DNA of 64,000 nt from Escherichia coli phage phiS: the sequence record PP449093.1. The stretch is one strand, 5' to 3'. The position numbers and the translations under genes are program-made. A model generated the notes under the pieces. It saw nothing but the letters and a program-made list of their open reading frames with translations. It did no database searches and was not told where the DNA came from. Shown here piece after piece: positions 15,314-23,639 of this stretch (positions are counted from its first letter, which is position 1; each line of letters begins with the position of its first letter).

Positions 15314-15342
15314 TTGACAGGGGATCACCGATCCCCTATACT
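15314..15342 (+). promoter_or_regulatory. PeSL-like early promoter: TTGACA - 17 bp - TATACT
   Basis: Spacer is the perfect inverted repeat GGGGATC acc GATCCCC. Confidence 0.6.
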
Positions 15343-18826: not shown

Positions 18827-18855
18827 TTGACAGGGGAGGATAACTCCCCTACAAT
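18827..18855 (+). promoter_or_regulatory. PeSL-like early promoter: TTGACA - 17 bp - TACAAT
   Basis: Inverted repeat GGGGAG gataa CTCCCC. Confidence 0.55.
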
Positions 18856-18895: not shown

Positions 18896-19147
18896 ATGGC
18901 TAACATCGAAACCGCAAAGAAAATCGCTAAAGACCTGAACGTTAAAGGCTTCCGTAAACTGAAATTACAGCGTGTACGCTACACCATCGGCAAACAGTGC
19001 TCTTTCATGAGCGAAGAAATTGCTAACAGCCTGATTGATAACCTGATTGCGGCTGGCTGGGAAGTTGCGGATCTGAAAACTTGCCGCGAACTGGCTAACA
19101 AAGGTCTTTTAGATTCTGTTACTATCAAACCAATGGGGGCAGCGTGA
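18896..19147 (+). CDS. Hypothetical protein (83 aa)
   Basis: GGAG RBS, PeSL upstream. Confidence 0.45.
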   Translation: MANIETAKKIAKDLNVKGFRKLKLQRVRYTIGKQCSFMSEEIANSLIDNLIAAGWEVADLKTCRELANKGLLDSVTIKPMGAA

Positions 19148-19680
19148 ACAATATAGACTGGAAGAAATACTTTAATTATGATCCTGATACTGGTATTCTT
19201 ACATGGAAGGAGAGAACAGATATACACCCATCAAGAATAAAACAATGGAATGCTGCATGGGCTGGAAAGGAGGTCGGGTCACTAGGAAGTGGTGGACGTT
19301 ATCTTGAATCGTCAATAAAAATTGACGGTAAAATTATTAACTACAAAGTTCATCGAGTATGTTATATTATCCACAATGGACCTATACCAGAAGGATATGA
19401 AGTAGACCATATTAATCACATTAAGACAGATAATAGAGCGGTGAATTTTGAACTTAAGACACATCAAGACAACATGAGGAATCAAACAAAATCTAAAAAG
19501 AATACAAGCGGACACAGTGGAATACATAAAAACAAATACAATAAATGGGTAGTTAGAATTGGCAGCGGTCGTCGTGGTGATAGAAAATATCTAGGATGCT
19601 TCGATACATTAGAAGAAGCTATAGAGGTTAGAACCAAAGCAGAAAGAGAGCATGGCTATCATGAAAACCACGGAAAGTAA
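19144..19680 (+). CDS. HNH endonuclease with C-terminal AP2-like DNA-binding domain; GTG start
   Basis: HNH core YEVDHINHIKTDNRAVNFELKTHQDNMRNQ; AP2-like GIHKNKYNKWVVRIGSGRRGDRKYLGCFDTLEEAIEVR. Confidence 0.7.
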   Translation: MNNIDWKKYFNYDPDTGILTWKERTDIHPSRIKQWNAAWAGKEVGSLGSGGRYLESSIKIDGKIINYKVHRVCYIIHNGPIPEGYEVDHINHIKTDNRAVNFELKTHQDNMRNQTKSKKNTSGHSGIHKNKYNKWVVRIGSGRRGDRKYLGCFDTLEEAIEVRTKAEREHGYHENHGK

Positions 19681-20386
19681 ACTTATATTCTGTAATTTTG
19701 ATGGGTCCGGTATCATGGGTCTAGAATGGGCGAAAGCAGGTCATAAGGTGATCTGCTTTAACGCAGATGATGCGGATCATGGAACATATAAAAAATACAA
19801 CACTCGATTTGAGCATCCCAACCTAACATATGTTAATGCATGGATTGACCTAGATTGGTTGGAAAGGGCAATGGACCTTGAATGGGGCAAACCGGATATG
19901 ATCTTTGCGTTTCCTAGCTGTTCAAATTTAGCGGTTAGTGGCGCTGCACATTTTGAGCGTAAGCGAAAAACTCTAGGTCCACTCATTCAGCATAGAGATG
20001 TTCAAACAGCTAAAATAACCGCTTATTTGGGTGAATGGCTAGGAGTTCCCTACATGATAGAGAATCCTGTAAGCGTTATCTCTAGCATGTGGCGTAAGCC
20101 TGATTATATGTTCCATCCGTGGGAATATGGCGGTTATTTGCCGGAAGATGATAAACATCCTACTTTTCCTGAGTATATTGCCGCCCGTGATATGTACCCG
20201 AAAAGGACTTGCTTATGGACCGGACAAGGCTTTATAATGCCAGAAAAGAAACCGTTGCAGATTAATAAAGGGTACAGTAAACAGCATTCTAAGCTAGGCG
20301 GGAAAGGAACGAAAACAAAGACTATAAGGTCACTTACCCCGCGAGGATTCGCAAAGGCAGTATTTGAAGCAAATAAGGATCTATAA
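19652..20386 (+). CDS. Compact cytosine-C5 methyltransferase-like protein (catalytic domain only)
   Basis: Motif I-like FCNFDGSGIMG, motif IV-like DMIFAFPSCSNLAVSG (PSC instead of canonical PCQ), motif VI-like MIENP; start overlaps 3' end of the HNH-AP2 gene. Confidence 0.55.
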   Translation: MAIMKTTESKLIFCNFDGSGIMGLEWAKAGHKVICFNADDADHGTYKKYNTRFEHPNLTYVNAWIDLDWLERAMDLEWGKPDMIFAFPSCSNLAVSGAAHFERKRKTLGPLIQHRDVQTAKITAYLGEWLGVPYMIENPVSVISSMWRKPDYMFHPWEYGGYLPEDDKHPTFPEYIAARDMYPKRTCLWTGQGFIMPEKKPLQINKGYSKQHSKLGGKGTKTKTIRSLTPRGFAKAVFEANKDL

Positions 20387-20715
20387 TGAGATTGTTTAAG
20401 TATTCGCTAACGTCAAATTACGATAAACAAGGTCATTGCATCCGTTGCCCTGATTGTCATAACCATAACATCGAAAGCAAGATCACCGATCATATTGATG
20501 GACTTTGGTCGCCAGCAAGTGAAATAGAATACTATTGCGCTGATTGTGGAATTGTAGTAGCATATTGGGCATACGGATCATATGATCCATACTTCCAGAT
20601 GGGAGAGCGTTCAATCCCTGCGCTTATCTGGAGAATTAAGAACAATATCCGCCATTCATGGGATGAGTTATTAAAAGATATTGATTTACGTGATGATCCA
20701 TTCAGGAGACTATAA
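20386..20715 (+). CDS. Zinc-ribbon protein (two CxxC pairs)
   Basis: CIRCPDC ... CADCG. Confidence 0.45.
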   Translation: MRLFKYSLTSNYDKQGHCIRCPDCHNHNIESKITDHIDGLWSPASEIEYYCADCGIVVAYWAYGSYDPYFQMGERSIPALIWRIKNNIRHSWDELLKDIDLRDDPFRRL

Positions 20716-20716
20716 C

Positions 20717-21235
20717 ATGAACAGATTAACCCCTAAACGCCGTTACTATACCAATACTAAAAACTTTGTCATCTCTGTTTATGAGGCGTGGTTAGAAGAT
20801 GGCTATATCAACATGAACCCAGATTATCAGCGTCCTTTGGTATGGGACACCGAAAACAAACGTATGTTTATCGAAAACCTGATTAATGATTTTCCGGTTG
20901 GTGCTATCGCAATGGCTAAGATTGATGATGGCTCTCGATATGAGATCGAAATCGTGGACGGTAAACAGCGTTTAAACGCAATATTCTCCTTCATGAAGGA
21001 TGAGTTTAGCATTGCTGGTAATGATGATTCTATGCTGTATTACAGTGATTTTACGCCAGCAGAAAAGCGACGTTTCCGAAATCTCGGACTACCCGCGATA
21101 ATGATGGAAGAGAGCACACGAGAAGACCGATTAGAGTATTTCTACAAAACAAACTTTTTCGGTGTCCCTCAATCGGAAGAACATCGCCAGCATGTGATTT
21201 CCCTATTGCAAGATGAGCAATTAAAAAATAACTAA
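20717..21235 (+). CDS. Standalone DUF262 (ParB/Srx-like NTPase domain) protein
   Basis: PDYQRPLVW ... IVDGKQRLNAI matches the DUF262 signature (DxQR ... DGQQR); AGGAGA RBS before ATG 20717. Confidence 0.55.
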   Translation: MNRLTPKRRYYTNTKNFVISVYEAWLEDGYINMNPDYQRPLVWDTENKRMFIENLINDFPVGAIAMAKIDDGSRYEIEIVDGKQRLNAIFSFMKDEFSIAGNDDSMLYYSDFTPAEKRRFRNLGLPAIMMEESTREDRLEYFYKTNFFGVPQSEEHRQHVISLLQDEQLKNN

Positions 21236-21242
21236 AAAGTTG

Positions 21243-21272
21243 TTGACAGGGGGATCGGTGATCCCCTATAAT
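21243..21272 (+). promoter_or_regulatory. PeSL-like early promoter: TTGACA - 18 bp - TATAAT
   Basis: Inverted repeat GGGGGATC ggt GATCCCC. Confidence 0.55.
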
Positions 21273-21308
21273 GCACACATACCGAAACGAACTACTAAGG
21301 AGTATCAA

Positions 21309-21521
21309 ATGGCTAACATCGAAATCATCATTACCGACGTAACTTATGACCGCATTAACGAAATCGGTACTGCATTACTGGAAGATGAAACAACTCGTAC
21401 CATCAACTACGCAGAATACGTTGAAATGCGTGGCTGGATTAAACGAGTAGGAAAATATACCCTGATTGAAAAAGACTATTCAGGATATACCTTAGAGCAA
21501 TTGCTCGATGGTGCATTATAA
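21309..21521 (+). CDS. Hypothetical protein (70 aa)
   Basis: ATG with GGAG RBS; followed by terminator hairpin. Confidence 0.45.
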   Translation: MANIEIIITDVTYDRINEIGTALLEDETTRTINYAEYVEMRGWIKRVGKYTLIEKDYSGYTLEQLLDGAL

Positions 21522-21526
21522 TAAAG

Positions 21527-21546
21527 GGGGCGTTAAGCCCCGTTTT
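21527..21546 (+). terminator. Terminator-like hairpin
   Basis: GGGGC gttaa GCCCC followed by GTTTT. Confidence 0.45.
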
Positions 21547-21587
21547 CATAAATATAGGTTTATAGGTTATCAACTAGAGGATATAAA

Positions 21588-23639
21588 ATGTTTAACTTAG
21601 AAATCGACGATCTAATGATTGAATCTTTCGAGAAATGGCTGTTGACGGAAGAGGAAGAAAACTTTGGTAGTATTGCCCCGGTACAGTGCTTAAAGCCTAA
21701 GCAGAATCCTAAACAGCTTTTTGCAGTACAGACACGCGATAAAGATGTGATTGTCCGTCTTTGTAACTTCACCAACAAAACACCTAAAATCATTCGTATG
21801 GGTGACAAGACAGCACATGTTGTACTGTGCGAAATGAACAAAAGCGGTCGTATTGTACAGCTTAAAAATGGTCTAGGCGATAACCCGATTGCAGTTATGG
21901 CAAGTGCTTTTGATGTGGTTATGGAAACAGCCCGTAAAGCGCAATTAGACGCTGTTATGTTCCGTTTTAACGTATCCCGCATGAAAGGTAAGACCGAACT
22001 GGTTAAGCGCGTTATAGAGCGTTTGGTGCGTCGTACACCGAAGTTTGAAGTATTCCAGCAGGAAGTAATGACCAGCAAAAAGATCGCTTTAGTTGTTGTC
22101 AAGCGTCGCGGTATGGCGATTGATAAGATTAAAGGGATTAAACTTGATGATTCCTTGTTCACTAAAGTAGAAAGTGATTTAGGTGATCGCTGGGTATCTA
22201 AGGCTACTGGTGAATCTCTGACTAAAGATGAGGCGTATGCGGCTAGTCTTGTGTCAGAAGAAGAACGAAACGCGGAAGCGGAACAACGCGTAGCGGCTAA
22301 ATCTCGTTTGACTAAAGAAGAAATGCTGAAAACTCAAGCGACCTATAACAGCGACTATGTGAATCATCCAGAAAAAATTAATCTTAAACCGGAAGAAGAT
22401 ATCACCGAAGCCGAACCTAAGAAACAGTTTAATACTCTGATTGATCGTCAAGCCTTAGAACGTTCAACCGCTCGTTCTCTGAATGAATGGACAAGTGATA
22501 TTATCACTCGCTATGGTTTCATGCGTACTATTTTTGAAAGCGAAGCCGATGCAAAATACGCAGTAAGCGAACTGGTAAAAGTTCAGGATCAATATGATCC
22601 GTTGTCTGCGGAAGTTATCGCAGCATCAATCAAACGCTTAAAAGAAATCATGAGCGAGGAAGTATTCGAAAACAAGATCACCGCCCTGGCAATGGATCGA
22701 GTAGACCAGTCTATGCCAGCAGATGTAAAAGCTGAAATGCTGCGTAGTCATATCACCCAGATTAAAACCGATGCCCTACGTAATGTTGCTTCCGGTATGT
22801 TTGAAGCAATTGCTAGCAACATGGGTGAAATGATGGCAGATATTGATCTTGATCTGCCGGGCGCGGAAGGTTTTGTATTGAGCGAATATGCCGATGCAGC
22901 ATACATCAATATGAACAACTTCCTAACCGACCGTAAGCTGGAAGAGTTTGAAGGCATCGCAGATCCAGAAGAATTGGTCAAGATGTGCGATGCACTGGAT
23001 AATGCCTTCTCTAACTATGGTGTTAAACTTGATCCGGGTACTATTCTGTATCGTGGTATGGACTTCCGGTCGCAAATGTGGGAAACTGCACGTAAGCAAA
23101 AAGCGTTTTACTTTAAAAACTATGTGAGCACTTCCCTTGCACCTAACATTTTTGGTGGCTGGAATGCAAACGTGGCTAGTGCCATTGCTGGTGTTGATTC
23201 TATGGCTGGCTCTCGCGGTGAAGGTGGCGCTAATGTTGCTTTCTCCATTGCTGGCGCGGAAAACATCCCTGTATTGCCAGTAGGTAACAAAGCATTTGCT
23301 TACAAAGAATGCGAGATTTTACTTCCTCGCGGTGTTGTGTTATCCTTTGATACGGTAACTCGTGCTACGGCATCGACGGATTCACAAGAAACATATTACA
23401 TTGAGGCACATATTATGAACAAAAGTGAACTGGCAGCATTACAAGAATCTGGCGAAATGATCGCGGACGGTGATGCATTCATCCGTGAAGGTGTTGTTAA
23501 ACCTGCTTCTGACCTGTCTTTCTCCAGCTTCATTAGCGAAGCTAAAACCGAACGTAAGAAAGCAGATAAGGCAACTCTACGTCAGCTTATCGCTGATCTG
23601 GTATCTGTAGACGCAATGCCAGATAAATTTAAAATGTAA
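21588..23639 (+). CDS. alt: ADP-ribosyltransferase Alt (head-packaged)
   Basis: 683 aa (T4 Alt is about 682); R-S-E catalytic triad motifs LYRG, VSTSLAP, ECEILLPRG; CATAAATA late-promoter-like box at 21547-21554. Confidence 0.85.
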   Translation: MFNLEIDDLMIESFEKWLLTEEEENFGSIAPVQCLKPKQNPKQLFAVQTRDKDVIVRLCNFTNKTPKIIRMGDKTAHVVLCEMNKSGRIVQLKNGLGDNPIAVMASAFDVVMETARKAQLDAVMFRFNVSRMKGKTELVKRVIERLVRRTPKFEVFQQEVMTSKKIALVVVKRRGMAIDKIKGIKLDDSLFTKVESDLGDRWVSKATGESLTKDEAYAASLVSEEERNAEAEQRVAAKSRLTKEEMLKTQATYNSDYVNHPEKINLKPEEDITEAEPKKQFNTLIDRQALERSTARSLNEWTSDIITRYGFMRTIFESEADAKYAVSELVKVQDQYDPLSAEVIAASIKRLKEIMSEEVFENKITALAMDRVDQSMPADVKAEMLRSHITQIKTDALRNVASGMFEAIASNMGEMMADIDLDLPGAEGFVLSEYADAAYINMNNFLTDRKLEEFEGIADPEELVKMCDALDNAFSNYGVKLDPGTILYRGMDFRSQMWETARKQKAFYFKNYVSTSLAPNIFGGWNANVASAIAGVDSMAGSRGEGGANVAFSIAGAENIPVLPVGNKAFAYKECEILLPRGVVLSFDTVTRATASTDSQETYYIEAHIMNKSELAALQESGEMIADGDAFIREGVVKPASDLSFSSFISEAKTERKKADKATLRQLIADLVSVDAMPDKFKM

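Follow-up and report, generated by a model that had tools for sequence, protein, structure and literature searches.

The gene cluster and its setting

The stretch of DNA analysed here, hereafter the window, comprises 64,000 nucleotides of Escherichia coli phage phiS (sequence record PP449093.1), and within it lies a cluster of four plus-strand genes which encode an HNH endonuclease-like protein, a compact C5-methyltransferase-like protein, a zinc-ribbon protein and a standalone DUF262 protein. An earlier note on this DNA had listed the four open reading frames (ORFs), and all of them are indeed present: the HNH gene at 19144..19680 (178 aa), the methyltransferase-like gene at 19661..20386, the zinc-ribbon gene at 20386..20715 (109 aa) and the DUF262 gene at 20717..21235 (172 aa; listed at 20681-21235). 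In comparison with a related metagenomic contig, the ratio of nonsynonymous to synonymous divergence (dN/dS) is 0.04-0.07 for all four, which indicates purifying selection, and they are therefore four real genes rather than chance ORFs. The nucleotide identity of the region is about 95% to 56 Krischvirus records (RB49, Phi1, JSE, GEC-3S, TB34 and others) and its flanks are 97-100% identical to RB49, and because of this the window is assigned to an RB49-like, T4-type coliphage of the genus Krischvirus. The query coverage is 81% in every one of these records, and the part of the phiS region that all 56 leave uncovered is the HNH gene.

The cluster is located in a hyperplastic region, as described for the genus Krischvirus (PMC2839356), just 5' of the gene for an Alt-like ADP-ribosyltransferase. 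It is bounded by two PeSL cassettes, where a PeSL is a sigma-70 consensus promoter with an embedded G/C-tract stem-loop and AT-rich upstream sequence, lying between genes of the hyperplastic region (PMC2839356). The first cassette (18827..18855, plus strand) consists of TTGACA, a GGGGAG/CTCCCC stem-loop and TACAAT, with 11/12 consensus matches, and is nearly identical in RB49; the second (21243..21272, plus strand) consists of TTGACA, a GGGGATC/GATCCCC stem-loop and TATAAT, with 12/12 consensus matches. Both have perfect stems of 6-7 bp between the -35 and -10 hexamers and fit the published description (PMC2839356), and they begin exactly where the earlier note had placed them. The cassette at 18827 is predicted to serve as the early promoter of one polycistronic unit, which comprises five genes, so that the proposed four-gene block keeps its PeSL bounds but not its gene number, an 83-aa ORF at 18896..19147 standing first.

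The HNH gene and its relatives

The HNH gene has a GTG start that overlaps the upstream stop codon, and it lies inside the existing operon without a strong promoter of its own. Its product matches Pfam HNH_3 with E=3e-17 over residues 67-112, covering the full profile (1-46 of 46) as expected of an HNH catalytic domain, and it also matches phrog_99 (2e-55) and the PADLOC 'homing endonuclease' model (E=2.3e-7); the dN/dS of the gene is 0.07. As for the C-terminal part, Pfam AP2 is not matched at E up to 1, either by the whole protein or by its C-terminal 66 aa, while in a phmmer search of the C-terminal 61 aa against the PDB the plant AP2/ERF domains rank first (ERF096 with E=0.0077, WRI1 with 0.014, AtERF1 with about 0.8). 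Of the HNH-AP2 endonuclease proposed in the earlier note, the HNH half is thus well founded and the AP2 half weak, and the combined label appears plausible but marginal.

An exact-sequence look-up of the HNH protein found no record, and a word-indexed search then gave a relative with 95% identity. The gene is absent from all 56 database Krischviruses having the other three genes. It is found at the same position in two metagenomic Krischvirus contigs, L014 and L015, with 94% amino acid identity and together with a methyltransferase allele of 98% amino acid identity, although the arrangements differ slightly. The only close relatives in the phage database are 13 records with 62-66% amino acid identity, all of them Drexlerviridae (T1-type), and in 9 of these 13 a methyltransferase gene is annotated as overlapping the HNH match. 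Moreover, in two further metagenomic backgrounds a 59% orthologue overlaps an intact gene of the methyltransferase family (hmmsearch 3e-132 and 2e-92). Altogether, HNH orthologues with 59-66% identity adjoin the methyltransferase 5' end in four other phage backgrounds.

Among these the lambdoid prophages of E. coli (L016-L021) present a special case, where an intact 62% HNH orthologue is located in the nin region between a 167-aa ORF and NinG (for example L019 3001-3630). The short ORF of about 42 aa that follows it ends in the methyltransferase C-terminal motif PRGFARAVFLAN; its end, PPRGFARAVFLAN, weakly matches the last positions of the methyltransferase profile, in register at 6/6 loci, and the ORF appears to be a methyltransferase remnant from which nearly the whole gene has been deleted. 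About 1600 phage records contain more distant HNH paralogues (44% identity or less), and a single genome often has several of them, beside head, helicase or primase genes. Judged by its sequence and distribution, the phiS HNH gene is best read as a selfish, free-standing homing-endonuclease gene that would have arrived recently and in a strain-specific manner.

The replaced tract

Sliding identity to RB49 delimits a replaced tract at 19150..20010, which takes in the HNH gene and, of the methyltransferase gene, the first ~340 nt. The identity is 97-100% up to 19149, through the 83-aa ORF that forms the left homology arm of the HNH replacement; it vanishes across the HNH gene, amounts to 65-87% over 19680-20010 (methyltransferase codons 8-119), and then returns to 98-100%. 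At the position of the HNH gene, RB49 has an unrelated 81-aa ORF, p189.1, which is replaced in phiS. Moreover, 83 of the 87 differences between the methyltransferase genes of phiS and RB49 fall within the first 340 nt, next to the HNH gene. The synonymous divergence is saturated inside the tract, while dS relative to RB49 is 0.016 for the zinc-ribbon gene and 0.15 for the DUF262 gene. From this step in identity together with the saturated synonymous divergence, we conclude that a diverged donor was the source of about 860 bp, comprising the HNH gene together with the 5' third of the methyltransferase gene.

A parallel case is found in the Drexlerviridae, in the Warwickvirus pair PeterMerian, which has the HNH gene, and MatMar, which has not: their flanks are 92-100% identical, the HNH gene is present as an indel, and the methyltransferase genes are only 35-75% identical. 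Kalemo has a shorter replaced tract than PeterMerian, so that parallel tracts differ in length. In both Krischvirus and Warwickvirus, the HNH gene occurs sporadically at a fixed position among close relatives. Such tracts would be consistent with co-conversion of the flanking target-gene sequence.

Regarding the small ORF that is lost from phiS, the methyltransferase and zinc-ribbon genes of L014 are separated by an additional 81-aa ORF (1516-1761), which is 45% identical to RB49 p189.1, and this small-ORF family therefore flanks the methyltransferase gene on either side in different phages.

The compact methyltransferase-like gene

The methyltransferase-like gene encodes 241 aa from ATG 19661, the most likely start (244 aa from 19652), and its product belongs to phrog_757 (1.5e-88), a family of 3137 proteins which are all about 225-250 aa long. 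The solved C5 methyltransferases matched by fold have 291-418 aa, and the compact protein should accordingly leave no room for a conventional, large target-recognition domain. No match to Pfam, NCBIfam or PDB sequences was found for the phiS protein, the PDB having been searched with the single sequence and, at E up to 1, with the family profile. Among 30 relatives, 13 have a weak match to PF00145 (E up to 0.1, best 2e-5), which the phiS protein itself does not show. Since the sequence-level searches are empty, the classification was made by fold comparison only, where a Rossmann-type class I fold is found with DNMT3B, DNMT3A, a prophage C5 methyltransferase and M.HhaI as the best matches; this agrees with the compact C5-methyltransferase-like protein of the earlier note. 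Motif I (FDGSG), Cys90 and motif VI (E137-N138-P139) are present and conserved.

Motif IV, F-P-S-C-S-N, is encoded at 19910..19927 on the plus strand and has Ser in place of Pro directly before the catalytic Cys (CCG to AGC). The usual form is PPC, seen in 106 of 107 parsed cluster representatives and in 6 more by eye, and L014 shares the PSC allele of phiS. The dN/dS of the methyltransferase gene is 0.037 relative to L015, indicating that the PSC allele is under strong purifying selection. Shigella phage ISF001 has PQC, in a sequence that is oddly unlike its close relatives.

The same family includes the annotated Dcm-like genes of Tls, PeterMerian and GeorgBuechner. In the literature searched, no methylation activity or specificity is reported for any member. 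The phiS protein is most likely an orphan, site-limited cytosine-C5 DNA methyltransferase.

What is known of DNA modification in the genus gives this assignment a frame. HpaII and NheI, both methyl-sensitive, cut RB49 DNA, which has been treated as unmodified (PMC4041780), and Krischvirus TB34, which carries the same trio of methyltransferase, zinc-ribbon and DUF262 genes, has no modified nucleosides detectable by high-performance liquid chromatography and mass spectrometry (PMC13390438). An orphan methyltransferase acting on rare sites would still be possible, because low-frequency, site-specific 5-methylcytosine would probably escape these assays. In the BASEL study, phage methyltransferase genes had no simple relation to restriction resistance (PMC8594841). 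The Durham Krischviruses SAP and TB34 are reported to differ in cytosine modification, SAP being the modified one and grouped by its profile with seven Tequatrovirus phages of the same collection (PMC13390438). We considered whether a coding difference in the block underlies this contrast, and there is none in the methyltransferase, zinc-ribbon and DUF262 genes: within the block, SAP (L028, ~2440-2600) differs from TB34 (L027) only in that the PeSL directly behind the DUF262 gene is duplicated in tandem (79 bp) and in a 1-bp indel. For the grouping of SAP with Tequatrovirus, a mixed stock is worth excluding.

The zinc-ribbon and DUF262 genes

The zinc-ribbon protein belongs to phrog_2993 (1e-33), and the four cysteines that define it are invariant in its homologues. 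The alignment has the invariant residues C21, C24, C51, C54, W61, Y63, G64 and P68, the latter four forming a W-x-Y-G...P motif. We also considered whether this protein could be a degenerate HNH/His-Me nuclease, forming a split GmrSD with the DUF262 protein, as its 'CxxC...DH...CxxC' arrangement might suggest. However, the Asp-His is not conserved, and because there is no conserved His the protein is not regarded as a degenerate HNH; the Pfam and PDB profile searches returned generic zinc-finger noise only and no nuclease.

The DUF262 gene almost certainly starts at ATG 20717, which has AGGAG 8 nt upstream and corresponds to the RB49 orthologue annotated at 172 aa. With this corrected start, the standalone DUF262 protein of ParB/Srx type named in the earlier note is confirmed: the product matches Pfam GmrSD_N with E=4.7e-20 and PADLOC NsnA with 1e-20, and its model (predicted local distance difference test score 87.7) has a ParB/Srx fold for which Foldseek matches PadC, Noc, ParB and BrxU (7p9k). 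Three motifs are invariant in the alignment, namely YQRxxVW (Y37-Q38-R39), DGKQR (D81-G82-K83-Q84-R85) and NxxGVPQSEEH. The protein covers only positions 9-183 of the 417 positions of phrog_1583, that is the N-terminal half. GmrSD_N is its sole significant Pfam domain, and a DUF1524/His-Me nuclease domain is absent from this protein and from its neighbours; it is therefore not a GmrSD enzyme, and most likely a small nucleotide-binding module of ParB/Srx type. Profile searches had been set in the earlier note as the refutation test, and the assignments that profile and fold searches gave for the methyltransferase-like and DUF262 ORFs are not unrelated to those proposed.

Standalone DUF262 homologues are widespread in T4-like phages (Pseudotevenvirus, Slopekvirus, POP12). 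A word-indexed protein search with DUF262 gave 7 matches, and tblastn against phage genomes was more informative. A nuclease partner was sought 3' of the DUF262 gene in other T4-like phages, and none of the candidates (Miro gp183, RB16p167, ST64B sb32) has a nuclease domain. In RB16 (L005 2652-3507) and Klebsiella phage Miro (L006 2657-3507), the DUF262 gene is preceded by a phrog_7472 ORF of 107-109 aa, the length of the zinc-ribbon protein, for which neither BLAST nor PHROG assignment detects homology to the Krischvirus zinc ribbon.

Distribution of the accessory genes

Among 50,697 phage records, the methyltransferase family is found in 1509 (Dhillonvirus, Drexlerviridae, rV5-like phages and many others), while 324 have DUF262 and 243 have the zinc ribbon. 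Krischviruses account for about 56 records of each family, and only there, among the loci inspected, are the three genes adjacent. For example, the methyltransferase genes of Drexlerviridae have no zinc-ribbon or DUF262 gene nearby; the DUF262 genes of RB16, Miro, POP12, ST64B and metagenomic contigs have neighbours from unrelated families; and the neighbours of the zinc-ribbon genes of 9g, Felixounavirus and KP13-27 differ from those in Krischvirus. The arrangement varies even close to the genus. In kaaroe an extra ORF lies between the zinc-ribbon and DUF262 genes. A divergent Krischvirus-like contig, L022 (ENA ERZ27254724 k141_110561, 20-1528), contains p190, p189.1, the zinc ribbon, a 46-aa ORF and DUF262, in this order and with 56-72% amino acid identity to phiS or RB49, and has no methyltransferase gene between p189.1 and the zinc ribbon, thus representing a natural methyltransferase-less variant.

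A mosaic cluster and its alternatives

We consider it probable that the locus is a mosaic early-gene cluster: to accessory genes, three or four in number and each with a distribution of its own, a selfish HNH homing-endonuclease gene has been added, and this gene travels together with the 5' portion of the methyltransferase gene. The observed part of this explanation comprises the folds and the gene content, the polymorphic presence of the HNH gene, the tract that differs from RB49, the linkage of HNH to methyltransferase genes across phage families and the purifying selection; the cleavage, the homing event, the methyltransferase substrate and the activity of the DUF262 protein are inferred. 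During a mixed infection, the HNH endonuclease would cut an allele devoid of HNH, at a site within or close to the 5' part of the methyltransferase gene, and repair templated by the HNH-bearing genome would then copy in the HNH gene with the adjoining methyltransferase segment (co-conversion), overwriting the small ORF p189.1. Nuclease and methyltransferase would thus be paired as a homing endonuclease and the target gene to which it is linked, rather than as enzymatic partners. The methyltransferase, zinc-ribbon and DUF262 genes would be adjacent because of genus-level synteny, the p190-like ORF likewise being a conserved accessory gene. Individually, the methyltransferase-like or DUF262 proteins may still have roles in restriction evasion or exclusion.

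Several points weigh against this explanation. The tract could have been produced by ordinary homologous recombination with a diverged phage, without any endonuclease action. Loss of the Pro before the catalytic Cys (PSC in phiS and L014, PDC in PeterMerian and Kalemo) was considered as a change conferring immunity at the homing site, but the HNH-linked alleles of L029 and L033 keep PPC, and the substitutions in the tract cluster more densely elsewhere than in motif IV. The putative methyltransferase remnant in the prophages is a weak match (9.5 bits, E=0.06), though in register in all six loci. Moreover, the methyltransferase, zinc-ribbon and DUF262 genes are tightly packed, with a 1-nt overlap and a 1-nt gap, they are co-inherited in 56/56 sampled Krischviruses, and in the divergent L022 the zinc-ribbon and DUF262 genes are still found together; on account of this packing and co-inheritance, a joint function of the pair or the trio is possible.

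The last point leads to the suggestion of the earlier note that the four genes could form one modification, exclusion or anti-restriction system moving as a PeSL-bracketed module. In such an integrated system the methyltransferase, the zinc ribbon and the DUF262 NTPase would act together, with or without the HNH protein. Besides the co-inheritance of the trio, which is apparently co-transcribed from one PeSL, and the purifying selection on all genes, it could draw on the role of DUF262 as the sensor/NTPase domain in the defence enzymes GmrSD, BrxU and SspE (Pfam, PADLOC and BrxU fold matches), as well as on PeSL recombination, which moves genes in this genus (PMC2839356) and has left a PeSL-to-PeSL deletion right after the block. 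However, the HNH gene is a recent strain-specific insertion, the three other families are found apart outside the genus, L022 lacks the methyltransferase gene, and intervening ORFs separate the methyltransferase gene from the zinc ribbon in L014 and the zinc ribbon from DUF262 in kaaroe. The set is not covered by any PADLOC system model, and neither the RB49 and TB34 data (PMC4041780, PMC13390438) nor the BASEL study (PMC8594841) speaks for modification or for a simple link between methyltransferase and restriction resistance. The claim of one system is thus not borne out, and we regard it as improbable. Nor does the module fare better, since PeSLs are ubiquitous in the region and precede most units here, so that being bracketed by them does not set the block apart, and none of the rearrangements seen inside it is at a PeSL. 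A related idea is that the methyltransferase, zinc-ribbon and DUF262 proteins form a split DNA-targeting machine for modification or counter-defence, in which the nucleotide-dependent DUF262 module, with the zinc ribbon, would provide the minimal methyltransferase with its missing DNA recognition; to this we likewise give little weight. In one variant of it the substrate of the methyltransferase-like enzyme might be something other than cytosine in bulk DNA, and this would account for the lack of detected modification in RB49 and TB34 DNA.

If only the HNH and methyltransferase genes are considered, they could be taken for a restriction-modification-like or toxin/antidote pair, where the methyltransferase would shield the phage's own DNA and the HNH protein would attack unmethylated DNA of the host or of competitors. 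The nuclease gene does overlap the methyltransferase 5' end, and the adjacency recurs in five phage backgrounds. But the methyltransferase gene is kept without the HNH gene in the 56 Krischviruses, and this HNH occurs in at most about 1% of the 1509 methyltransferase-bearing phage records. In the prophages the HNH gene is intact beside what is apparently a short methyltransferase remnant, which argues against a functional pairing of nuclease and methylase. In addition, this HNH is of a homing-endonuclease family with paralogues beside many unrelated genes, and the methyltransferase segment was co-imported with it, as co-conversion predicts. Such a pair is therefore very improbable.

There is also the view that DUF262, possibly with the zinc ribbon, is a stripped-down GmrSD relative engaged in conflict between phages or between phage and host; it could be a decoy or dominant-negative inhibitor of host Type IV enzymes of the GmrSD/BrxU type, or a sensor by means of which a cytosine-DNA Krischvirus excludes co-infecting T-even phages with hydroxymethylcytosine. 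The three intact motifs, the fold in common with BrxU, the wide occurrence of standalone homologues in T4-like phages and the adjacent zinc ribbon in L022 would agree with this, and for a closely related Krischvirus isolate sensitivity to BrxU has been reported (PMC13390438). On the other side, the protein has no nuclease domain, the zinc ribbon has neither a conserved His nor a nuclease match, and the DUF262 genes of RB16, Miro, ST64B and metagenomic contigs have unrelated neighbours and no zinc-ribbon homologue. RB49-type DNA being unmodified (PMC4041780), no need of protection from Type IV enzymes is expected. We consider such a role doubtful.

Relation to known systems

The free-standing homing endonucleases of T4 are promoter-less intergenic cassettes that cut a neighbouring gene hundreds of bp away, and their spread co-converts the flanks (PMC2988022; see also PMC10448857). 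Like T4 mobA and mobE, known for 'intronless homing', the phiS HNH gene is an intergenic promoter-less cassette between conserved genes with sporadic occurrence among close relatives. It shares with the mob genes an HNH domain at the N-terminus and a separate, putatively DNA-binding C-terminal region, as well as the replacement of adjoining target-gene sequence, and an N-terminal HNH with a C-terminal AP2 is a described class of phage endonucleases (PMC10448857), the AP2 assignment being marginal for the phiS protein. Its GTG start is found in mobA as well (PMC2988022), and together with the lack of a strong promoter and the position within an operon it matches the T4 mob and seg genes. The differences are that it is not homologous in position to any T4 mob gene, and that it is linked to a non-essential accessory methyltransferase-like gene rather than to a gene of replication or nucleotide metabolism. 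Moreover, unlike the T4 mob genes, one and the same endonuclease lineage accompanies the methyltransferase gene in Straboviridae, in Drexlerviridae, in lambdoid prophages and in two metagenomic backgrounds.

With the C5 DNA methyltransferases (PF00145: M.HhaI, Dcm and the DNMT3 catalytic domain) the compact protein shares the FxGxG, catalytic Cys and ENx motifs, and it is in the same family as the 'Dcm-like' orphan methyltransferases of Drexlerviridae and Dhillonvirus. It departs from the C5 enzymes in its family's size of about 230-250 aa, in the Ser before the catalytic Cys and in having no sequence match in Pfam, NCBIfam or the PDB. A Type II restriction-modification system would require that the nuclease is co-inherited with the methyltransferase and dependent on it, whereas nearly all of the 1509 records are without this HNH. 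In the case of the GmrSD, BrxU and SspE Type IV enzymes, which combine DUF262 with DUF1524, the phiS protein has the N-terminal DUF262 domain with its conserved motifs; unlike them, it ends at 172 aa, is encoded by a phage and is placed behind an early promoter. The PeSLs have the same architecture and genus as those of RB49 and phi1, with a PeSL-to-PeSL deletion at the 3' edge of the block. Unlike the PeSL shuffling of RB49 and phi1, however, the variation inside the block is not at PeSLs, which holds for the replacement by HNH, for the variable presence of the methyltransferase gene and for the insertion of small ORFs.

If the HNH gene does spread by homing as proposed, one free-standing HNH lineage tracks a family of compact methyltransferase-like genes which is present in about 3% of sequenced phage genomes. 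The tracking would span T4-type myoviruses, T1-type siphoviruses and lambdoid prophages, and it would explain the local mosaicism in the methyltransferase gene. It also serves as a caution that a nuclease beside a methylase need not be a restriction-modification-like unit. The most useful residue of the analysis is the cross-family linkage between the endonuclease and methyltransferase genes, together with two common uncharacterised families of phage proteins, which raise the questions of what the methyltransferase-like proteins of about 230 aa methylate and what a nuclease-less DUF262 does for T4-type phages.

Flanking genes and other PeSLs

The 83-aa ORF at the head of the unit is the orthologue of RB49p190 (phrog_14908, E=1.3e-58; 98.8% amino acid identity to RB49). 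On the other side of the cluster, the second PeSL is followed by a 70-aa ORF at 21309..21521 on the plus strand, which is the orthologue of RB49p185 (phrog_10679; 98.6% identity to RB49), then by a terminator at 21527-21541, 3' of this orthologue, and then by the Alt-like ADP-ribosyltransferase gene at 21588-23639 on the plus strand (phrog_802, E=3e-180). The phiS interval 21236-21308 lacks a homologue of the 59-aa gene RB49p186 and one of its two flanking PeSLs (RB49 alignment, L001 3650-3975), while RB49p186 and both flanking PeSLs are present in RB49, TB34, L014 and L015. The junction of this loss falls within the cassette that begins at 21243, and the loss is a textbook case of the PeSL-to-PeSL deletions which Arbiol et al. 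2010 described.

Most transcription units of the hyperplastic region have a PeSL in front, and about 51-52 PeSLs have been counted per genome (PMC2839356). In phiS, more PeSL-like cassettes are found at 15314, 17874, 18226 and 18583, 5' of the small ORFs that precede the block. These additional cassettes have the common framework AAAAAGTTGTTGAC...TATAAT...ACCGAAACGA...GGAGAATCAAA, and the region is dense in PeSLs. Finally, a 200-aa ORF at 21560-22162 on the minus strand runs antisense to the Alt-like ADP-ribosyltransferase gene and is almost certainly spurious.

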